DNA of 64,000 nucleotides from Gemmatimonadota bacterium (GCA_029262175.1 JAJCZV010000072.1:152537-216536); one strand, 5' to 3'; positions 22,064 through 58,351 are shown, numbered from the stretch's first letter. The notes: generated from the letters alone by a model not told the origin. Numbers and translations are program-made.

Positions 22064-22147
22064 TGCCGGAGGAGGGACTCGAACCCTCAAGGGATTGCTC
22101 CCACCGGATTTTGAGTCCGGCGCGTCTGCCAGTTCCGCCACTCCGGC
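22064..22147 (-). tRNA. tRNA-Leu (anticodon CAA), 84 nt with long variable arm, CCA not encoded
   Basis: Minus strand: GCCGGAGTGGCGGAACTGGCAGACGCGCCGGACTCAAAATCCGGTGGGAGCAATCCCTTGAGGGTTCGAGTCCCTCCTCCGGCA; 7-bp acceptor stem, anticodon loop CTCAAAA, T-arm GGTTCGAGTCC. Confidence 0.85.
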
Positions 22148-29863: not shown

Positions 29864-30103
29864 CCAGGGGTTCTGGTCGTATGTCGATGGGAAGAAGGCG
29901 CCGTCCGGATTCGAACCGGAGTAGGGGGCTTTGCAGGCCCCTGCCTAGCCACTCGGCCACGGCGCCGCGATGCCGGACAGCCTAATGAGTCCAGAACCAT
30001 CGGGAAACCCCGACGCCGGGCCGGTCGCCGCAACCCGTCGGGCGGTAACGGCGGGCATTTCCGCGGCTTGTGCGGGGTCCGAACCGCCCTCTATACTCGC
30101 GCG

Positions 30104-47262: not shown

Positions 47263-47387
47263 CGGCCTACCCGTCGATGGAACGCAAAAAGTCGACTCGG
47301 GAACCGAGCCGGAGAGCGAATGCGAAGCTAAGGTCTGAGCGGGAGCGTCGCCAAGAACACGGGCACCGCCTCACGTCACGGTTCGAC

Positions 47388-49184
47388 TCAGAACGTGCGG
47401 ACGATCGTGATCTGGATGTCGGAGTTGTCTGTAATCAGCGCGCCGGTTTGATCGCTCACCGTCATCCTGACAAGGGGCGTCTCCCGAGCCGCTTCCAATC
47501 GGATGTAGTAGACGCTGGAGGGGAGCAATTCGAAGGACTCGGTGAATCCGCCAGGGGGGAGCGTGCCAACACTCAGAATCGTCGGCGTCAGCGGAAACCC
47601 TGCGGGAAAGACGAGCTCGAACCCGTGATCGCGCGCATTTTCGAAGATCGCTTGGAGATTCCAAGTATCAAGCTCGAGGATCGGCGCCAGCGGCACGTCC
47701 GCGTCCGCGAAGTCATCCACTGCCGGCATCGCTGCATACTCGGACAACAACTGTTCCCACGTGGTGCTCACGCCGAGAGCGGACGACAAGGCGCTCTCGA
47801 TGTTCGACGTTGACTGCTGGAGCGAGGGTCCGCCCAGTGTGAGGGCACGGAAAAACGCCTCTTCACGCGTCGAACCTACGAGCCCAGGGGGCCCGCCCGC
47901 GGCGAACTTGTCTGCAACCCAACGCAGAAACAGGTAGCCGAATCCGCGGGCTCTGCTGAAGTCAGTCCGGGTGATCGGACCCGTCTGGATCAGCGGAACG
48001 TTGGTGGTCGACTCCAGGTAGTTGGCCATGATGGCGAGATCGCCGAGGTGGTAGCGTCGGAACCGCGCGTTGACCACCGGGTCGGCGAGATCCGCGAGAT
48101 CTAGGTTCGCCCCCGTGCGCAGGCCACCCACGAACAGACCCGTGACCTCCTCCGCGATGTGAGAGAGCCCCTCGTTGAGCCAGGGCTCGTCGACCGTGCC
48201 CAGTTCGCCGCCGCCCTCGAACGACCTGCGGCCGGCATGCACCAAATGCTGGAGCTCGTGGGCCAGTACCCCCACCAGTCGATCCTTGACCAGGCCGGTC
48301 GGAATGATGCCGCCAAAACGGCCCGTGGGGTCGGGACCGATCAACCAGAGAACCTCGCCCTCGTTGCTAGCCGCACAGTCTTCGACGGCGGCCAGATCCG
48401 AGGCCGTGAAGAAGCCGGCGGCGCCGAGTCGGTTGACTGCGGACGTGACGAGGACGATCACCACGCCGTTTCCGTCGACATCCGACGGCGCCCCGAAGTA
48501 CGCTTCGCTGATGGGAGCGACAAAGTTCTCGACCTCGGTTAGAAAAGTCGCGTATTCGCTTCCCGTGATCTTGCCGGCGATCGTCGTGTCTTCGACGATC
48601 GCGAAGCGCGAACTCACGGCGCGAACGACGCCCGTGACTCGCTCCGTGGATGTGCAGGTCTCGAGCGATCCATCGGCCGTCACCGGTGATCGGAGCTCCA
48701 TCGTCTGCCCGAGGATGGGCGCAGATTTTCGGGCGATCGTCGCGCGACGCGCTCCGACGAGTTCGCGCTGCACCCTATGCCGAAAGTCGACTTCGCCCGT
48801 CTGGTACCAGTCGTCCAGGACAAGGCGATCCCGCGGGGCGGTCGAGCGCGCGATGGGGTTCGAGCCAGACGGAACGGCGGAAACCGAGATGGGGTCCACG
48901 CGACGGACCGAGAAACGAAGCGGCAGTGCGCCTGAGGCGAGATCGCTGGCGTTCTGCACCGCCACCAAGAACGTCTGGGTCTCGCTGGCCGGAGGAAGAT
49001 CGACAGGTGCGACCGCCTGCGCCCCGGACAGCGTTTGGAACTCGCCGGCGGCGAGTCCGACGACGGTGCTCGGCGGTGGCGTAAAGAAATCAGCCGGAGG
49101 CGCGCTGATCGCGCTGGACTCGCACCCCGCGGCCACGAGCACCGACAGTAGGAGAATCGACGGACCCCGGTAGATCGGCCTCAA
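47388..49184 (-). CDS. lipoprotein with zincin-like HExxH…(25 aa)…NEGxxHxAEE motif pair (putative gluzincin-type metallopeptidase), paralog 1 of 4
   Basis: 598 aa; lipobox LLLSVLVAAGC; SNEGEVLWLIGPDPTG, VLAHELQHLVHAGRR, WLNEGLSHIAEEV. Confidence 0.6.
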   Translation of the reverse strand: MRPIYRGPSILLLSVLVAAGCESSAISAPPADFFTPPPSTVVGLAAGEFQTLSGAQAVAPVDLPPASETQTFLVAVQNASDLASGALPLRFSVRRVDPISVSAVPSGSNPIARSTAPRDRLVLDDWYQTGEVDFRHRVQRELVGARRATIARKSAPILGQTMELRSPVTADGSLETCTSTERVTGVVRAVSSRFAIVEDTTIAGKITGSEYATFLTEVENFVAPISEAYFGAPSDVDGNGVVIVLVTSAVNRLGAAGFFTASDLAAVEDCAASNEGEVLWLIGPDPTGRFGGIIPTGLVKDRLVGVLAHELQHLVHAGRRSFEGGGELGTVDEPWLNEGLSHIAEEVTGLFVGGLRTGANLDLADLADPVVNARFRRYHLGDLAIMANYLESTTNVPLIQTGPITRTDFSRARGFGYLFLRWVADKFAAGGPPGLVGSTREEAFFRALTLGGPSLQQSTSNIESALSSALGVSTTWEQLLSEYAAMPAVDDFADADVPLAPILELDTWNLQAIFENARDHGFELVFPAGFPLTPTILSVGTLPPGGFTESFELLPSSVYYIRLEAARETPLVRMTVSDQTGALITDNSDIQITIVRTF

Positions 49185-49699
49185 GAAACGGGCGCTCGAA
49201 GGATGCCATAGCGCGCCACGCCATCGTACTCATCGAGGACCACCCAAACGATGGACCCGACGTGGGTTTGAAGAGACTCCGATATCACCCCCACGCGACG
49301 CATCTCGCCAGCCGTCCCCGCCAGAAAAAAGCCGCCGTCATCTTCCTCGAGACGTCCAATCAATGGACGGTCTCCATCGACGGACAGAATCTCGTACGAG
49401 GTCGCCTCCAGCACCGTCTCGGAAAGCTGGCCCTTCTCATAGTGTCCAGTGATTCGAACCTGCGCGCCTGAAAGACGCTGAATCTCACTCCGGTAGGGTC
49501 CCGTCACGACCATGCCCTCACCAGCGTCCGGCTCGACCACCGCCTGAGAGAAGGGAGCACTGCCGACCACTCGCACGCGGCCCTCCACCGCCTCCGGACC
49601 GACGCTGCCGATCCAGGCGAATCCACTGGGGCGTGCCTCCCGAGCACAGGCCGACCCGGTCGCGGCGAGGCAAAGCGCGAACCCGACGGCGACTCTCAC
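49181..49699 (-). CDS. small secreted hypothetical protein embedded in the lipoprotein array
   Basis: 172 aa; signal peptide MRVAVGFALCLAATGSACA; 4-nt overlaps with both flanking paralogs. Confidence 0.5.
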   Translation of the reverse strand: MRVAVGFALCLAATGSACAREARPSGFAWIGSVGPEAVEGRVRVVGSAPFSQAVVEPDAGEGMVVTGPYRSEIQRLSGAQVRITGHYEKGQLSETVLEATSYEILSVDGDRPLIGRLEEDDGGFFLAGTAGEMRRVGVISESLQTHVGSIVWVVLDEYDGVARYGILRAPVS

Positions 49700-51570
49700 C
49701 GCGTTCGCACGACGATCACTCGCGCACGCGCGCCGTTGGGCACGTTGGCGCCCGAGCTCGCGGTGAGTTCGACGGTCATGCTCGGGTGGGCCCCCGTGGC
49801 GCTAAACCGAAAATACTTTGCGGTGGAGGACAACAGGTCGAAGTTGTTCGTGGCGGAAGTACCCGTTCCCATGGCTACTCCCGAGGGGCTGAGCGGGTAA
49901 CCGCCACTGAGGACACCCGCCGCTCCCAACTCCTGGTAAAGCCGCGGCAGGTCCCATGTCGAGAACTGCACCTCGGGTGGGACCCCCGTTCCCGCATCAT
50001 CGGAGGCGGGGGCGGCGAAGTACTCCGAGAGCACGTCATCCCAGGTCGGGCTTTCGCCCGAGACCACGTTGATCGCGCGGAGGACGTTGGGAATCCCGAA
50101 CAGGTGCGTGGGCCCTCCGGTCGACAGCTCACGGAACAGCATGTCCTCGTTTGAGCCAGGGAGAATGCCGCCCGAGCCCGAAGGGCCGTATCGATCGCCG
50201 AGCCAGCGCAGAAAGGTGTATCCGTAGCCACGCGTTCCGAAATCGGCTCCCGCGACGGTCAACGCACCGACCGAATTCGGCGCAGAGAGATAGGTCTCGA
50301 CATTCGCGAAGTTGCTCACGTGGAAGTCCCCGAACACGTCGATCCCGGCTTGGCTCGCGCCGAACTCGGCGTACCCGCGGTTCGCGCGCGGCCCCAAACC
50401 GATCCGATGAAAACCGGACACCTCTTCGGCGATATGGGACATGCCTTCGTTCAGCCACGAATCTTCCGTATCGGCGAAGGTCCCGTTGCCGAGCGTCACA
50501 CGTTGTTGCGCGTTGAGCAGGTGTTGGAATTCGTGCGCCACGAGGCCACGGGCAATCTGCTTTACGAAGGCGGTCGACACGGGAGGACCGACCTCGCCGT
50601 CCGGGTCGGGAGCGATAAGCCAGATGATCTCGGCCTCGTTTCCGGACGGACAATCGACGGGGTCGGCAAGGTCCACGTTCGTGAAGAACCCGATGACGAT
50701 GCCCTGGCTTCCGGGCGGGGTCAGACGATTCACTTGGCGCGTAAAGAACGCGATCGTTCGTCCATTCCCGTCGAGATCCGCCGGGTTCCCGAAATAGGAA
50801 TGATCCACCGGGGCCACGAAGTCGTCTAGTTCAGCATCGAGATCTTGGTAGTCCGCGGCCGATAGTAGACCGGCCGCCGCCGGATCCTCGACGATGACGA
50901 AGTTCTGGCCGACCGTCTTGACCACGCCGTCGATCGGCGTCGACACCGAGCAGGACAGCGATCCACCGGGCGCCACGGCCGACGTGATTCGAACGACGTC
51001 GTTGACGCTCGGCACCGCCGCGCCCAACCCGGCGAGCGATGGGCGGAGATCGCGTGCACCCGTCGCTCTCGAGGTCTTGGCCGGCCGAGCTCCGACGCGC
51101 CGCAGTTCGTCCAGGGCCATCATCTGAAGTTCCAAATGGCGGTCGCCATCCGGCCGACGGTGAAAACCGAGCACATCAGACGCGGGCGGTTCAGATGTCG
51201 AGAACTCGCCCGACACCAACCGACCCCCCTCATCCGAAACGACATTCGCGCTTGCGGCCGATTGAGCCCTGAATCGAATGGGCGTCAGCCCATCCACGGT
51301 CTGACCGGCGCTCATGACGATCACCTGGTACTCACGGGCATCCGGCCCACCCGCGATCTCGAACGCTCGAATCGACGGGACATCCGAAAGCACGCGGACC
51401 TCTCCCGGCTGGAGGCTGAGCGAGGTTCCGATCGGCGGTGGCGGAGGCGGTGGCGGTGGCGGTCCTGGCGGGGGCGAAGTAGGTCCACCACCCCCGCCGC
51501 ACGCAGCCAGAGCGGCGCCAGAGAGCACCAAAAGAAGTCGATGGGACCAGCCGCGAGCGTTAGGCATCAT
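49696..51570 (-). CDS. HExxH…NEGxxHxAEE lipoprotein, paralog 2 of 4, with poly-Pro linker
   Basis: ORF to 51591 (GTG); ATG at 51570 gives MMPNARGWSHRLLLVLSGAALAACGGGGGPTSPPPGPPPPPPPPPPIG; GNEAEIIWLIAPDPDG, VAHEFQHLLNAQQR, WLNEGMSHIAEEV. Confidence 0.6.
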   Translation of the reverse strand: MMPNARGWSHRLLLVLSGAALAACGGGGGPTSPPPGPPPPPPPPPPIGTSLSLQPGEVRVLSDVPSIRAFEIAGGPDAREYQVIVMSAGQTVDGLTPIRFRAQSAASANVVSDEGGRLVSGEFSTSEPPASDVLGFHRRPDGDRHLELQMMALDELRRVGARPAKTSRATGARDLRPSLAGLGAAVPSVNDVVRITSAVAPGGSLSCSVSTPIDGVVKTVGQNFVIVEDPAAAGLLSAADYQDLDAELDDFVAPVDHSYFGNPADLDGNGRTIAFFTRQVNRLTPPGSQGIVIGFFTNVDLADPVDCPSGNEAEIIWLIAPDPDGEVGPPVSTAFVKQIARGLVAHEFQHLLNAQQRVTLGNGTFADTEDSWLNEGMSHIAEEVSGFHRIGLGPRANRGYAEFGASQAGIDVFGDFHVSNFANVETYLSAPNSVGALTVAGADFGTRGYGYTFLRWLGDRYGPSGSGGILPGSNEDMLFRELSTGGPTHLFGIPNVLRAINVVSGESPTWDDVLSEYFAAPASDDAGTGVPPEVQFSTWDLPRLYQELGAAGVLSGGYPLSPSGVAMGTGTSATNNFDLLSSTAKYFRFSATGAHPSMTVELTASSGANVPNGARARVIVVRTR

Positions 51571-51693
51571 CCGAGGGACGTCTCCGTACACTGGTTCGTG
51601 ACAGTTGAGCTACCCTGCGAAATCTAACGATCGGTCGGACTTGACGGGTTCCCGTGGTGGCGGTCGGACGCGAAGTGCGCCCGACCGTGAAGT

Positions 51694-53577
51694 TTAGCGG
51701 GTCCGGAGGATCGTGACTTGGCCGGCCACTCCGCCCGCCAGGTCCGCGCCCGACTGATTCGTGACCTGAATCACGACGTCGGGACTCGTCGCTGGACTCG
51801 TGATCGACACGTAGCGACCTGACGAGGCGTTCGTCGAGAAGGTCAGCACCTGATTCGTCGACGCGGTCAGAGTGACCGCGGCCGGAACCAAGGGATAGGG
51901 CCGGTCGAACGGGTTGGACATCCCGAGGTTGGACGTTTGAAGCTGTGCGTAGAGTCCGCGTAGATCCCACGTCAGAGACTGCGCGCGCGGGTCTGTGCCC
52001 GATGGCGCGTTGTCGTCGGCGACCAGGGAGGCGAGGTAAAGCGACAGCAGTTCATCCCATTGCAGATTCGAGCCCGCGATGGCCTGGAGCGCGGCCTCGA
52101 CATTTGTAATCCCGCTGACGTGGCTGGGCCCGCCACGAGAGAGCTCCCGAAAGAGCAGCTCCTCACGGCTGCCCGGTAGCGTCCCGGCGCCTGCCGGTCC
52201 GAAGTGATCGCCAAGCCAGCGAACGAACCCATATCCAAACCCGCGGAACGTGAGCGACTCGACGCCGCCGGGATCGCCACCGCTCGATGTGCCAAGGGTC
52301 ATCACCGACTCGGGCCCATCATACAAGAAGGAGGCGAAACGATCGACGTTCAACAGATGGAAGTCGTTAAAGGCGTCGAGATCCGCCTGACTCAAGGTCA
52401 GCCGATTGAGGTCGAGGTTCGATCTCGTGCCGAGACCAGCGGTCGCCAGACCCGCCAACTCTTCGGCCAGATGCGCCAACCCCTCGTCAAGCCAGGCGTC
52501 TTCCCGATTCGTGATCAGATCGCCGTTACCGATGATCGCGCGTTGCTCGGTGTTGATCAGATGTAAGAACTCGTGCGCCACCGTCGTCCGTGCGAGCGTG
52601 TTGGCAAACTCGGCGGAAATCGCCGGGCCAAACTGCGCACCCGGATCCGGACCGATGAGATAGAAAATCTCTCCCTCATTGGAGGCCGGGCACCCCGCCT
52701 TCGTGAGCAAATCGCCGGCGAAGAAGAAGCCCGCGATGATCGCGTTGCTGCCTTGAGGAGTGAACCGGTTTACTTCGGCGGTAATCAAGGCGATGACGGT
52801 TTGATTGTTATCGATGTCCGCCGGAGGGCCGAAGTAGGCGACGTTGGTCGGGTAGACCACGTTGTCGAGCTGAGTCCCGATTTCCTGATAGTCGGACGGC
52901 GTCAAGGTGCCAGCGACGTCCACATCCTCCACGACGGTGAAATTCTGACCCGCGTAGACGACCTCCCCCATGATCGTCCCGGTGTTGTTGCAGTCGGGGT
53001 TGAAATTCGAATCGATCCCGATCGAGAACGTCAACATCTCACCGAGGACGGGGGGGCGACCCGCGGCAACAGACGCAGAAACGTCGAACCCGGGGCGGAA
53101 CGGTGCAGCGCCAACGCGGGCCATTTCCTGCCGAGTGCGATCGCGGAGCACCGTCTCCATCTCCGCAGAGGAGGCTCGCATGGCGAGCTCTCGGTCCGTC
53201 GGCCCTGATCGGCGCTCGAGGACCGGTATTCGTACCGGAACCGCGTTGGCCGAAGCGCCGGCTGCGGTGACCCGTATCTGCATGGGAGTCACGCCGCCAA
53301 ACGATTCGGACGCGCTTTGCACGATCATCTGGTAGTCGCGGGCCTCGCCACCGCCGTCGAGCTGAAAGGAACGCACCTGCGCGGGGTTGGTCAGGGTGAC
53401 GATCTCGCCGACGGTCATGTCTAGGGAGATCGCGGGCGGAACGGATCCGCCTGGAGGTGGGGGAGGTGGGGGTGGGGGAGGAGGAGCCGGGGGCGGATCC
53501 GTCGCACCGCCACATGCCGAGAGGACCAGACCGACAACCGCTGCCAAGACCGTCCACCGCCCGTTCCGACCCATCAT
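51694..53577 (-). CDS. HExxH…DEGxxHxAEE lipoprotein, paralog 3 of 4, with poly-Pro linker
   Basis: 627 aa; WTVLAAVVGLVLSACGGATDPPPAPPPPPPPPPPPGG; SNEGEIFYLIGPDPGA, VAHEFLHLINTEQR, WLDEGLAHLAEEL. Confidence 0.6.
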   Translation of the reverse strand: MMGRNGRWTVLAAVVGLVLSACGGATDPPPAPPPPPPPPPPPGGSVPPAISLDMTVGEIVTLTNPAQVRSFQLDGGGEARDYQMIVQSASESFGGVTPMQIRVTAAGASANAVPVRIPVLERRSGPTDRELAMRASSAEMETVLRDRTRQEMARVGAAPFRPGFDVSASVAAGRPPVLGEMLTFSIGIDSNFNPDCNNTGTIMGEVVYAGQNFTVVEDVDVAGTLTPSDYQEIGTQLDNVVYPTNVAYFGPPADIDNNQTVIALITAEVNRFTPQGSNAIIAGFFFAGDLLTKAGCPASNEGEIFYLIGPDPGAQFGPAISAEFANTLARTTVAHEFLHLINTEQRAIIGNGDLITNREDAWLDEGLAHLAEELAGLATAGLGTRSNLDLNRLTLSQADLDAFNDFHLLNVDRFASFLYDGPESVMTLGTSSGGDPGGVESLTFRGFGYGFVRWLGDHFGPAGAGTLPGSREELLFRELSRGGPSHVSGITNVEAALQAIAGSNLQWDELLSLYLASLVADDNAPSGTDPRAQSLTWDLRGLYAQLQTSNLGMSNPFDRPYPLVPAAVTLTASTNQVLTFSTNASSGRYVSITSPATSPDVVIQVTNQSGADLAGGVAGQVTILRTR

Positions 53578-53695
53578 GTGTCCCCCTGCCTAAACCCGCT
53601 TCGTGTCCCCGGCCTCAGTGCCGGGCGCGATGTGGCCCCGCCGCAGCGAAGCCCTTTGATCCAAACGATTTGCTGCAAGTAGGGTTCCGCCGTCC

Positions 53696-55558
53696 TTACC
53701 GCGTCCGCAAAACGACAAACTGCGCTTCCGCAGACCCCGGCACAGCCCCCCCCGAGGAGGTCTTGAGCGTCAGCGAGATCCGCGGGTGCGGGCCCGGGCT
53801 CTCAAAAACAAAGTATCGGCCCGTTGACGCCAAGACGTCGAAATCCACCCCGACGTTCGTGGACTCGCTCATCGAGATGTTCGAAGAAACGAGCGGAAAC
53901 GAGTTCTTGAACGGATCTTCGGCGCTCGACTGCTGATTGAGGCCGGCGTAGGCATCGCGCAGCTGGAAGGTGGTGACTTGCGTCGACCGGGCGGTCGCCC
54001 CCGCGAGATCATCCGCGGCTGGTGCGAGCCCGTAGAGGGCGAGCAAAGTGCTCCACTCGCCGGGCGCGCCCAGACCGGCCGCCACCCGCTCGATGTTCGC
54101 TACGCCCCTGGCCCGAGACGGACCGCCGGAAGCCAAATCGCGATAGATCAACTCCTCCGCAGCCCCGCCAAGGAGGCCCCCGCCGGCCGGAGCATACTGA
54201 TCGACCAACCATCGGAGCAGCAGCCAGGAGAAGCCGCGCATCTCGAGCGACGACACGCCGCCGGGGTCCGCACCCGAGGCGGTACCGAGGGCCATCGTCC
54301 CGTTGGTATCCAACAGGTGGAAACCCGCGCGCCGGAAGTTGGCGAAGTGGAAACTGTCGAACGCCTCCGAGTTCGCGGTGAGTTCTCCGAACCCCAGGTT
54401 TTGCCCGGGTGGGAGACCCGACACCCGCAGACCGACGGCGGTTTCCGCGGAGTGGGCCAGTCCCTCGCTGAGCCACGAGTCCTCGAGGTCGGCGAAACTT
54501 CCGCCACCGATGGTCACTCGACGCTGGGCCGCGATCAGGTGCTCGAGTTCGTGTGCGGCGACCCCGATGGCCCTGGTCGTGGCGAAGGACGCAAGCACCG
54601 GATCCGAAAAGCGGCCGGAGGGATCTGCCGCCACGACGTAGAGAATCTCCCCTTCGTTGGAACCGGCGCAGCTCGCGGGGCTGGAAAGATCGCTCGGGTT
54701 GAAGAAGCCGGACACACGCGTCGCGCTACCGCGCCGGGTCACGCGGTTGACGACCGGCGTAAACATGAGCCACACGATGCCGTTGTTGTCCAGGTCGGCT
54801 GGCGCGCCAAAGTACGTCGTGTCGACGGGAAAGACCGAGTTCTCGAGGACGTCGAGCAGCGCAGCGTATTCTGACGCCGTGACCGGACCCGCGGCCTCTA
54901 CATCCTCGATGATTCCGAAGGACGAGCCGAGCGCGCGAACGACGGTGACCACGTCATGGATGCCGGCGCACTCGACCTCGAGATCGGCGGTGACGGTGTT
55001 GGTAAAGACCATCGTATCGCCGAGGGCCAGCTGCGCTCGAACCAGCGAGGCCGGCGCCCGCCCGTGCTCGCCGTTGGGTAACCGGAGAGGCTCGGCGTCG
55101 CGGAGCGCCGCTCGTGCATTGGCGCGAAATCGAAGCTCTTGCTGGGAAGCGATCTCTTCTGCCCTCGCCTGGAGATCGGGCGGAGTCACCGGCACGGTTG
55201 CCACGGCGTTCGAGACCCGGCTCGCCGACGGAAGCGGGCCCTTCGCCTCCAGTCGCAGGCTCACGCGGGCACTCGGGACCCGGCTCGCGCTTTGAATCAC
55301 CACGATGTACTGCGCTGCGGTGGGTGACGATTCGATCAGCAGCGCCGCCGCGTCGGCCCCATGGAGGGTGCAGATCTGACCCGGGCTCAGAGCCAGCGTC
55401 GGGCCGGATGGTGAGGTCTGGCTCGGGGACGAGAGGGCCGCGCAGCTCGCGACCGCCGGTCCTGTCCCATCACTACATCCATACGAGAACCCGGCAACCA
55501 TGACCCCGAGAGTCAAGGTTCGCACCGAGTTGCCGCCGCCTAGGTCAGAGAACCGCAT
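53696..55558 (-). CDS. HExxH…SEGxxHxAE lipoprotein, paralog 4 of 4
   Basis: 620 aa; signal/lipobox-like LTLGVMVAGFSYGC; SNEGEILYVVAADPSG, VAAHELEHLIAAQRR, WLSEGLAHSAETA. Confidence 0.55.
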   Translation of the reverse strand: MRFSDLGGGNSVRTLTLGVMVAGFSYGCSDGTGPAVASCAALSSPSQTSPSGPTLALSPGQICTLHGADAAALLIESSPTAAQYIVVIQSASRVPSARVSLRLEAKGPLPSASRVSNAVATVPVTPPDLQARAEEIASQQELRFRANARAALRDAEPLRLPNGEHGRAPASLVRAQLALGDTMVFTNTVTADLEVECAGIHDVVTVVRALGSSFGIIEDVEAAGPVTASEYAALLDVLENSVFPVDTTYFGAPADLDNNGIVWLMFTPVVNRVTRRGSATRVSGFFNPSDLSSPASCAGSNEGEILYVVAADPSGRFSDPVLASFATTRAIGVAAHELEHLIAAQRRVTIGGGSFADLEDSWLSEGLAHSAETAVGLRVSGLPPGQNLGFGELTANSEAFDSFHFANFRRAGFHLLDTNGTMALGTASGADPGGVSSLEMRGFSWLLLRWLVDQYAPAGGGLLGGAAEELIYRDLASGGPSRARGVANIERVAAGLGAPGEWSTLLALYGLAPAADDLAGATARSTQVTTFQLRDAYAGLNQQSSAEDPFKNSFPLVSSNISMSESTNVGVDFDVLASTGRYFVFESPGPHPRISLTLKTSSGGAVPGSAEAQFVVLRTR

Positions 55559-55693: not shown

Positions 55694-55722
55694 TGCACAA
55701 AGGCCCGGCGGGTGCCGGGCCT
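55694..55722 (-). terminator. putative rho-independent terminator downstream of groEL
   Basis: Minus strand GGCCCGGCacccGCCGGGCC followed by UUUGUG, ~55 nt after groEL stop. Confidence 0.5.
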
Positions 55723-57471: not shown

Positions 57472-57780
57472 CTAGAGGACCGCGAGAACGTCGGCCTCTT
57501 TGACGATCAAATAGTCGTTCCCCTGGAGAGACACTTCCGTGCCTGCGTATTTTCCATAGAGAACCAGATCGCCGACCTTTACTTCCATTGGGATTCGCTC
57601 GCCATCGTCGTTGAGGCGACCCGGTCCCGCTGCTACGACGTGTCCCTGTTGGGGCTTCTCTTTCGCGGTGTCGGGGATGTACAACCCGCCGCGCATCTCT
57701 TCGGTCTCCTCGGCTGGTCGAATCACAACGCGATCCGCCATCGGGGAGATGTCCAGTTTCGTTTTCGAGGCAGTAGCCAT
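57472..57780 (-). CDS. groES: co-chaperonin GroES (Hsp10)
   Basis: ORF to 57819 but GroES-like start is MATASKTKLDISPMADRVVIRP (ATG 57780); rest ...GHVVAAGPGRLNDDGERIPMEVKVGDLVLYGKYAGTEV... Confidence 0.9.
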   Translation of the reverse strand: MATASKTKLDISPMADRVVIRPAEETEEMRGGLYIPDTAKEKPQQGHVVAAGPGRLNDDGERIPMEVKVGDLVLYGKYAGTEVSLQGNDYLIVKEADVLAVL

Positions 57781-57844
57781 CTTGCCCGTCTCTCCTTGAT
57801 CCATCCAGTGTCCACACATGTCGCCGCGAACAACCCGCGGCGTG

Positions 57845-57871
57845 TTAGCACTCCAGTCCAGTGAGTGCTAA
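57845..57871. promoter_or_regulatory. CIRCE operator (HrcA binding site), perfect 9-N9-9 inverted repeat upstream of groES
   Basis: TTAGCACTC-cagtccagt-GAGTGCTAA, exactly the CIRCE consensus, 65-90 nt upstream of the groES start codon. Confidence 0.9.
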
Positions 57872-58147
57872 CAGCGAGTCAAATATGAGGCCCCGGGCCG
57901 CTCCGATCAAGGAGCCCGAGGCACCCCCCTACTATGCACGCCGCATGCCCGATCTCCGCCCTAAAACCGGGCCTTTTTGGCAGATACGCCCACCTCGGGC
58001 AACCACTCCTGCCGACTTGACCGCCCTGCCCCTTCCCCTTTCCACGAAAAAGCCGCCAAACCGCCATGTGCCCCCAAAACGCCTGAGCCCACACCTTCGA
58101 AACCTTCACGGTCCCCCGCGCGTAGTACGGACCGAAAGGAGGCGTAC

Positions 58148-58351
58148 ATGATTCGAAAAATCTTCGGACTGTTGACCGTCGGGGTGGTGGGCTTCGCCGT
58201 AACGGGCGTCGTATTCTCGCTCGTGCTGCCGCTTGTCCTGATGGCGGTCAAAGTGATGTTCTTTGTGGGGATCGTTTACTTGATCCTGAGGATGGTCAAT
58301 CCGGAATGCGCCGAGAAGCTCAAGGAGCGCTGCTGCAGCACCAAGGACTAG
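58148..58351 (+). CDS. small two-TM membrane protein with Cys-rich C-terminus, hypothetical
   Basis: 67 aa MIRKIFGLLTVGVVGFAVTGVVFSLVLPLVLMAVKVMFFVGIVYLILRMVNPECAEKLKERCCSTKD; strong RBS aaaGGAGGcgtacATG; ORF-track version (from 57977) has an implausible Pro-rich leader. Confidence 0.5.
   Translation: MIRKIFGLLTVGVVGFAVTGVVFSLVLPLVLMAVKVMFFVGIVYLILRMVNPECAEKLKERCCSTKD

Follow-up and report, generated by a model that had tools for sequence, protein, structure and literature searches.

A tandem array of predicted M30-like metallopeptidase lipoproteins with a small OB-fold partner between groEL and thrS in Gemmatimonadota

Examination of a stretch of 64,000 nucleotides (nt) from a Gemmatimonadota bacterium (GCA_029262175.1, JAJCZV010000072.1:152537-216536; hereafter the window) reveals a tandem array of five minus-strand genes at positions 47388 to 55558. 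From the 5′ end of the array these are par4 (53696-55558; 620 amino acids, aa), par3 (51694-53577; 627 aa), par2 (49696-51591; 631 aa for the longest open reading frame, ORF, within which the true start is likely the ATG at 51570 or 51567), the small gene s (49181-49699; 172 aa, GTG start) and par1 (47388-49184; an ORF call of 598 aa, TTG start). The four par genes are paralogs predicted to encode M30-like zinc metallopeptidase lipoproteins, and s encodes a putative lipoprotein of two OB-like beta-barrels. The array lies between groES-groEL and thrS-infC-rpmI-rplT-pheST, and GC content is unremarkable throughout. An earlier interpretation made without database searches (the sequence-only reading) had described four minus-strand paralogs of 598–631 aa with an embedded 172-aa ORF between a thrS cluster and groESL, and all five genes are recovered here, in that setting and at the same coordinates. 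The peptidase family had been left unnamed. We place the four paralogs in family M30 (hyicolysin/lugdulysin; clan MA(E)), within a large branch that has so far gone unannotated; they thus vary an enzyme family already known and do not constitute a novel type of system.

The four proteins are 34.6–41.5% identical to one another in pairwise comparisons and have 106 invariant alignment columns in common, and because thousands of homologs exist as well, this similarity is far beyond chance. Each contains an HExxH motif together with a W-L-x-E-G-x-x-H-x-A-E element, the Glu of which lies 25–26 residues past the second His of HExxH. These are HELQH at 48246-48260 and WLNEGLSHIAE at 48150-48182 in par1, HEFQH at 50521-50535 and WLNEGMSHIAE at 50425-50457 in par2, HEFLH at 52561-52575 and WLDEGLAHLAE at 52462-52494 in par3, and HELEH at 54539-54553 and WLSEGLAHSAE at 54443-54475 in par4, all on the minus strand. 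A block of the form S/GNE(G/A)E...PDP is also common to all four, and the C-termini read ...(V/L)RT(R/F). The motif set proposed in the sequence-only reading is thus present in every paralog, with slight deviations in two details: par2 has NEAE rather than NEGE, and par4 has AET rather than AEE at the end of the second motif.

MEROPS assigns M30 to the gluzincins, subclan MA(E) (PMC3890501). When a profile built from the four paralogs was searched against solved structures, the sole match was lugdulysin (7bb8/7bb9; E 1.6e-14), deposited as an M30 zinc metallopeptidase of Staphylococcus lugdunensis, and with a profile of 65 homologs the match to lugdulysin 7bb8 reached E 6.8e-29 (hmmsearch; 104 bits, chain residues 46–250). 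Motifs common to both in the aligned block are F-G-x-P-x-D-x-D-x-N-G, S-N-x-x-E-I-x-Y, A-H-E-x-Q-H and W-L-N-E. The family profile was also aligned by hhalign with an M30 reference set, five sequences recovered with a lugdulysin fragment that carry PF10460, one of them named 'M30 family zinc metallopeptidase'; the probability of the match is 99.5% (E 5e-23, 303 columns), and it spans par2 residues 192–553, which is the whole peptidase unit. An AlphaFold2 model of par2, built from the 65-sequence alignment (predicted local distance difference test score, pLDDT, 88.2; predicted template modelling score, pTM, 0.87), has the fold of the solved M30 structure, with lugdulysin as the top Foldseek match (E 2e-14, target TM 0.61–0.66); next come the peptidase domains of the M9 collagenases ColT/ColH, at E 2e-3 to 6e-3, ahead of an M1 aminopeptidase (E 1e-2). 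Two hallmarks of M30, HExxH and a Glu that lies some 23 residues past its second His within W-L-N-E, are both recognizable in the family sequences. The gluzincin-like zinc site suggested earlier can therefore be given a name, since profile, hhalign and Foldseek comparisons all point to a remote relationship with M30, and the structure prediction that had been proposed as a check yields a gluzincin fold; E382, which aligns to the W-L-N-E Glu of lugdulysin, is the predicted third zinc ligand.

Exact look-up of the five proteins gave no name from any public source, and searches of one literature collection found no paper on the structure or mechanism of lugdulysin and none linking Gemmatimonadota, metallopeptidases and lipoproteins. 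Scans of the five proteins with Pfam and NCBIfam gave no significant match, and the weak ones (Phage_spike_2, DUF1072, MXAN_6640_HExxH, RseA and invert_tail) were dismissed as noise.

Conservation of the active site was assessed in 135 full-length family copies from 85 loci, using par2 numbering. H353, E354, H357, E382, H386 and E389 are all intact in 130 of the 135 copies; the H, E and H of HExxH are intact in 132, E382 (the Glu in W-L-(N/D/S)-E-G) is invariant (135/135), and R454 is present in 134. All four window paralogs retain every catalytic and zinc-binding residue. Conservation of the catalytic residues at about 30% identity suggests selection for catalysis, which argues for the family members being active enzymes, and the persistence of the motif in orthologs goes against one of the refuting conditions named in the sequence-only reading. 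Three copies in other genomes have a substituted catalytic residue with the rest of the active-site signature kept, two with GExxH (L040 9911-11809 and L044 9857-11764) and one with HQxxH (L059 8882-11713), and judging by their sequences these may be pseudo-peptidases derived from the family.

As had been proposed, a lipobox Cys can be identified in all four paralogs. In par1 it is C21, in the context VAAG-C and followed by a short Pro/Ala/Ser spacer; in par2 (LAA-C31) and par3 (LSA-C22) it precedes runs of 10 and 11 prolines respectively, in keeping with the two poly-Pro proteins noted earlier; and in par4 it is Cys28, in an atypical context (..FSYG-C) that is canonical in the orthologs, with a spacer of Ala/Ser/Pro and not poly-Pro. 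The usual N-terminus in the family is ..LAA-C-G-G-(D/E)-G followed by 7–17 prolines, and a crude regular expression calls a lipobox in 105 of 129 family copies. The sites of par1, par2 and par3 fit the lipobox consensus [LVI][ASTVI][GAS]-C. Past the lipobox, each mature window protein has one conserved Cys pair (177/270 in par1, 214/314 in par2, 196/296 in par3 and 197/297 in par4, the last with an extra pair at 39/63); this pair is kept in about 95% of the family and, as far as sequence can indicate, fits an oxidising extracytoplasmic compartment.

The par2 model begins with N-terminal beta strands (residues 56–111) and a low-confidence stretch with one helix (117–188); the M30 unit comes next, and C-terminal beta strands occupy residues 570–629. 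A beta-sandwich resembling PPC/collagen-binding domains is present in the family proteins, and this accessory sandwich has no match to the Pfam PPC model. The beta domain is always at the extreme C-terminus, and a sorting domain of the type IX secretion system (T9SS) was considered and rejected: there is no match to Por_Secre_tail in Pfam or NCBIfam, and a lipoprotein signal would be atypical for T9SS cargo.

Two further observations concern the N-termini. The public gene call for par2 (P0001, 565 aa) uses an internal GTG start past the signal peptide and poly-Pro tether, with loss of the lipobox, and several database homologs of 565–580 aa look N-terminally shortened in the same way; with such short calls, automated annotation would fail to recognise that the family consists of lipoproteins. 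In par3-class orthologs (L004, L009, L010, L019-L023, L025 and L041) a second lipobox-like sequence, LA(T/S)G-C-G-G, lies past the Cys and poly-Pro run (reading ...LAA-CGGGTTDPPPPPPPPPLATGCGG...), and window par3 does not have it. A duplicated N-terminal module, an alternative processing site and a disulfide partner are all possibilities for this motif.

The product of s has its lipobox at Cys18, which is nearly invariant across homologs and lies in an atypical context (GSA-C) that is canonical in orthologs; 35 homologs are detectable, at 39–70% identity. The sequence-only reading had described s as secreted and translationally coupled, and the coupling stands, since the par2 stop and s start overlap by 4 nt (GTGA), as do the s stop and par1 start (TTGA), but the product is a predicted lipoprotein and not merely secreted. 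The model of s (pLDDT 89.7) consists of two OB-like barrels, and the sequence includes an invariant S-Y-E-I-L-S-V-D-G-D stretch. Its match to DUF5818 (PF19135) is weak at 13.5 bits (E 0.053), below the gathering score of 27 bits; 22 of the 35 homologs match this domain at E ≤ 1 (best 1.8e-6), and it is a precomputed domain in one of them. By sequence, s is probably a distant DUF5818 member via its C-terminal barrel. The literature collection searched yielded no paper on DUF5818.

In every peptidase-selected locus that has s (about 29 loci) the gene is directly downstream of a family member, and this holds even where the setting is not groEL/thrS, as at loci of Gemmatimonadaceae and Longimicrobium. 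The same position is found at three of the four loci selected via divergent s homologs, beside thrS or par1. The gene is not bound to one paralog class: it follows par2 in the window, whereas in L016-L018 and L021 it comes after par3. Judged by gene order, the association of s with the peptidases is strong, though not obligatory. The fourth s-selected case is the most divergent homolog, P0106 (43% identity; L088 6001-6504 and L089 2820-3323), with no adjoining family peptidase; its neighbours are a cupin gene and a gene resembling HhH-GPD glycosylases, and the s family therefore also exists outside the peptidase context.

The family is large. Scanning of species-representative genomes with a single motif, which gives a lower bound, confirmed at least 549 relatives, nearly all in Gemmatimonadota and with hosts that include 'Candidatus Palauibacter', Gemmatimonadales and Longimicrobium; Gemmatimonas and Longimicrobium are cultivated carriers. 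Among these genomes the family is essentially confined to Gemmatimonadota, which is the answer to the phylogenetic profile called for in the sequence-only reading. An exhaustive profile search of 1.84 billion representatives, clustered at 50% identity, gave at least 8,258 family clusters in total (8,258 at E ≤ 1e-3, 5,090 at E ≤ 1e-10 and 2,162 at E ≤ 1e-30), and the best 150 cluster matches are all near full length.

The array lies between groEL and thrS at about 36 loci, with one to four copies. In closer genomes best-hit assignment resolves clean orthology classes in the order par4-par3-par2-s-par1, with par4 orthologs first after groEL (L002-L007, L009, L010 and others). Losses of par1, s or par2 have occurred in particular lineages, and of the paralogs par1 is the one that related genomes lack most frequently. 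At greater distance, genomes carry just one or two copies that fit no class, together with s beside thrS, and every examined locus that includes thrS retains at least one copy in the groEL-thrS slot. Because both the groEL-array-thrS synteny and the order of the paralogs are conserved, the duplications are, on sequence comparison, old and the slot is ancestral. The earlier estimate of about 30–40% identity and an old local expansion agrees well with the measured identities and with the conserved orthology classes.

Of the 80 best loci, just one is on a contig not labelled as Gemmatimonadota: L019 (JAGWAK010000020.1), whose label is Acidimicrobiia bacterium. It has the typical groEL-par4-par3-par2 synteny at 51% identity, and is therefore probably mis-binned rather than evidence for membership in Actinomycetota. 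Longer solo members of about 900–990 aa (L010 14527-17496, L045-L062 and other solo loci) have immunoglobulin (Ig)-like domains N-terminal to the peptidase unit, real matches in the Pfam scan being Big_1, Big_2, TIG and Invasin_D3. These solo copies lie away from the groEL/thrS slot, and once (L010) just beyond thrS; by virtue of the Ig-like domains they form a second, adhesin-like architectural class within the family.

Several features suggest that the array is transcribed on its own. An intrinsic-terminator-like hairpin at 47285..47311 (minus strand; CGGCTCGG-TTC-CCGAGTCG then ACTTTTTGCG) separates the par1 stop from the start of thrS; the terminator consensus scan reports it with 8 pairs, 6 of them G-C, and it is likely the 3′ end of the peptidase operon. 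Directly past the groEL stop is a GC-rich hairpin at 55696..55721 (minus strand; GGCCCGGC-ACCC-GCCGGGCC then TTTGTG), identified by eye from the sequence and unreported by the consensus scan on account of its short T-tail; it is likely the groESL terminator, parting the heat-shock operon from the peptidase array. Terminator counts in the region are no higher than shuffle expectation, and the argument is one of position, not statistics. The start codon of par4 is preceded by a strong Shine-Dalgarno sequence (AAGGAG, 6 nt 5′ of the ATG), and the gaps between paralogs (102–118 nt) contain no convincing terminators. Given the flanking hairpins, the Shine-Dalgarno sequence of par4, the overlaps and the terminator-free gaps, the five genes look like a separate transcription unit between two housekeeping operons. 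Co-transcription or co-regulation with groESL was considered, and is disfavoured by the strong hairpin 3′ of groEL and by par4's own Shine-Dalgarno sequence. A scan for sigma-70 consensus promoters was uninformative (one site, with 1.9 expected), and Gemmatimonadota promoters are probably not covered by the consensus used. An Rfam scan of the array found no RNA element.

Elsewhere in the window, a perfect CIRCE inverted repeat (controlling inverted repeat of chaperone expression, the HrcA operator) is located at 57845-57871 (TTAGCACTC-N9-GAGTGCTAA), a short way upstream of the minus-strand gene groES (57472-57819). The repeat is free of mismatches, where chance would supply no such site, and HrcA therefore probably controls groESL in this genome. 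A small hydrophobic ORF at 57977-58351 (plus strand) is flanked by groES and a gene for type III pantothenate kinase, both of which are on the opposite strand. Counterparts of 66–72 aa are found at L002 3259-3462, L003 3163-3363 and L004 3421-3639, the position being conserved in several genomes; the ORF has no Pfam match, the window copy ends ...NPECAEKLKERCCSTKD, and it probably encodes a small membrane protein. No leader or riboswitch family reaches the Rfam gathering score near thrS, infC or rplT, and the sole Rfam/ARAGORN matches in the window are tRNA-Leu(CAA) and tRNA-Cys(GCA), at 22064-22147 and 29896-29966, both on the minus strand.

We consider it likely that the array is a conserved operon whose products are an OB-fold lipoprotein and gluzincin lipoproteins that are related to M30 and competent for catalysis, and are much less certain of its physiological role than of the identity of the family. 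Some of the data pull the other way. None of the four paralogs matches a Pfam or NCBIfam model at E ≤ 1, and just one of the 65 homologs touches PF10460 (Peptidase_M30), at E 0.005 and under its gathering score of 25.8 bits; the library search suggested in the sequence-only reading thus failed to find a named model, although the family's own profile does match lugdulysin. By hhalign, lugdulysin Tyr315 ('SNYSLSYLF'), located by residue count (chain index + 27) in a region where the alignment is less secure, stands opposite the invariant Arg454 of par2 ('RGxx(W/Y)xFLRW'), and since an Arg and not a Tyr is aligned there, the chemistry may differ in detail. About 12 of roughly 36 arrays are without s, that of the complete chromosome OZ220691.1 being an example, and one s homolog stands alone, so the partnership of s and peptidase is not obligatory. 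Finally, the strict conservation of the slot among core housekeeping genes fits housekeeping in the envelope better than the nutrient-scavenging battery envisaged at first. Membership in another gluzincin family, as an M1 aminopeptidase, M9 collagenase or M61 glycyl aminopeptidase, would account for the sub-threshold Pfam touches among the 65 homologs (Peptidase_M61 in 8, Peptidase_MA_2 in 6, M9 in 4 and M1 in 2), the lower-ranking Foldseek matches to ColT/ColH and the M1 enzyme, the sandwich resembling a collagen-binding domain, and the likeness of WLNEG to the M1 motif WLNEGFA. We regard it as highly improbable: these touches, including that of M30, indicate clan-level affinity only, in sequence no other protein comes near the match to lugdulysin, the only significant one in the PDB (E 7e-29), and the M1 exopeptidase motif GxMEN was not seen in the alignment, though no systematic search for it was made. 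Least probable of all is that the proteins are non-catalytic surface binding proteins or adhesins. The three substituted copies and the many members with adhesin-type Ig-like domains (Big_1, Big_2, TIG and Invasin_D3) would suit such pseudo-peptidases, but the catalytic residues are intact in the four window paralogs and in 130 of the 135 copies, at a level of identity where their retention indicates selection for catalysis.

Two further alternatives concern what the array does. In a peptidase-inhibitor system, s would be a dedicated inhibitor that inserts a loop into the active-site cleft, keeping one or more of the M30-like peptidases latent or shielding the envelope. There is a precedent in the potempins, outer-membrane lipoproteins of 98–132 residues with OB-fold or 8-stranded barrels that are encoded beside their target peptidases, co-transcribed with them and inhibitory (PMC9890683), and s is likewise a putative lipoprotein of OB-like barrels, is translationally coupled to two peptidase genes and almost always adjoins a family member. 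However, s has no sequence relationship to potempins, it lies downstream of a peptidase gene whereas potempin genes lie upstream, and both the arrays without s and the s homolog with no peptidase nearby sit poorly with a dedicated inhibitor; an inhibitor or adaptor role is plausible by analogy, but a potempin-like system in this full form is doubtful. The array might instead serve protein quality control or processing in the envelope rather than nutrient acquisition, with turnover of misfolded periplasmic or outer-membrane proteins and trimming of lipoproteins or cell-wall peptides as candidate tasks and s as an adaptor or stress sensor by analogy with NlpE. Here the fixed slot between groESL, with its perfect CIRCE, and thrS-infC-rpmI-rplT-pheST is conserved across widely diverged Gemmatimonadota, which implies vertical inheritance as part of the core genome, and the retention of at least one copy wherever the locus includes thrS fits as well. 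Against this, terminator-like hairpins part the array from both groESL and thrS, so that heat-shock co-regulation is not indicated; the variation from one to four copies and the solo copies with Ig-like domains look more like an adaptive, substrate-diversifying family; and a PPC/collagen-binding-like domain is typical of secreted degradative proteases. We treat this housekeeping role, too, as a tentative possibility and not a favoured one.

Starting from the M30-like peptidase reading, a mechanism can be proposed. The zinc would be held by both His residues of HExxH and by the Glu of W-L-x-E-G 25–26 residues downstream, the HExxH Glu would act as general base, and Arg454 and/or His386 (par2 numbering) may stabilise the transition state in place of the Tyr of lugdulysin. 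That Tyr315 was mutated along with E242 in the inactive crystal form 7bb9, according to the title of the PDB entry, and from this title and general knowledge of gluzincins we take it to be the transition-state stabiliser. The enzymes, tethered to the membrane and facing the periplasm or the cell surface, would cleave extracytoplasmic proteins or peptides, the four paralogs perhaps supplying different specificities, and the small lipoprotein would bind at least one peptidase as regulator, inhibitor or adaptor.

M30 is a small and poorly studied family; most of what is known about it comes from a single crystal structure and from two enzymes of staphylococci that are associated with virulence. 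The locus described here reveals a much larger sister branch that is missed entirely by current Pfam and NCBIfam models, and for this reason its genes are annotated 'hypothetical protein' in every Gemmatimonadota genome examined. Placement of the family supplies a testable biochemical function, together with material for a new family model or a MEROPS subfamily, and raises the mechanistic questions of Arg/His in place of Tyr as transition-state stabiliser and of what the OB-fold lipoprotein partner does. Soils, sediments and sponges harbour Gemmatimonadota in abundance, yet these bacteria are hard to cultivate. A conserved battery of envelope-tethered proteases bears on protein processing or envelope maintenance in these bacteria, and the finding is useful both for annotation and as an entry point to their envelope biology.

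Three known systems invite comparison. Lugdulysin and hyicolysin (M30; PDB 7bb8 and 7bb9; Staphylococcus lugdunensis and S. hyicus) are only 14–16% identical to the window proteins. They are soluble, secreted pre-pro-enzymes of Firmicutes, whereas the window proteins are predicted lipoproteins with a Pro-rich tether in diderm Gemmatimonadota, with about 200 extra residues in N- and C-terminal beta segments (the PPC-like sandwich), a conserved Cys pair, and an arrangement in syntenic tandem arrays with a small lipoprotein partner. Within the active site, the family has an invariant His386 where lugdulysin has Met, four residues past the Glu ligand (E-G-x-x-H-x-A-E-E). The M9 collagenases (ColG, ColH and ColT; clostridial and Vibrio) have PPC/collagen-binding accessory domains, and the family has a similar sandwich, but its catalytic domain is much closer to M30, it has no activator domain, and its members are lipid-anchored by prediction while the collagenases are freely secreted.

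The potempin/KLIKK pairs of Tannerella forsythia (PMC9890683) resemble the array in that a gene for a small beta-barrel (OB-fold) lipoprotein directly adjoins one for a peptidase that is secreted or surface-exposed, the two being co-expressed, which in the window is read from gene layout. In both cases several peptidase genes are clustered, and both hosts are diderms. Tannerella and Gemmatimonadota both belong to the Fibrobacterota-Chlorobiota-Bacteroidota (FCB) superphylum. Unlike a potempin, s has two barrels in 172 aa and no sequence homology to potempins, and a single s accompanies up to four paralogous peptidases of one family, while each potempin has one peptidase of its own and these peptidases differ in catalytic class. 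The resemblance, being one of analogy, appears to be architectural and contextual only. A bolder proposal, which we think unlikely, is that the array is a core envelope peptidase-regulator module across Gemmatimonadota, combining a mechanistically distinct M30 subfamily, with Arg454/His386 for Tyr, and a tandem-OB/DUF5818 lipoprotein as a new dedicated inhibitor or adaptor. If true, the module would be analogous in function to the KLIKK/potempin pairs and evolutionarily independent of them, with one regulator serving up to four paralogous enzymes.

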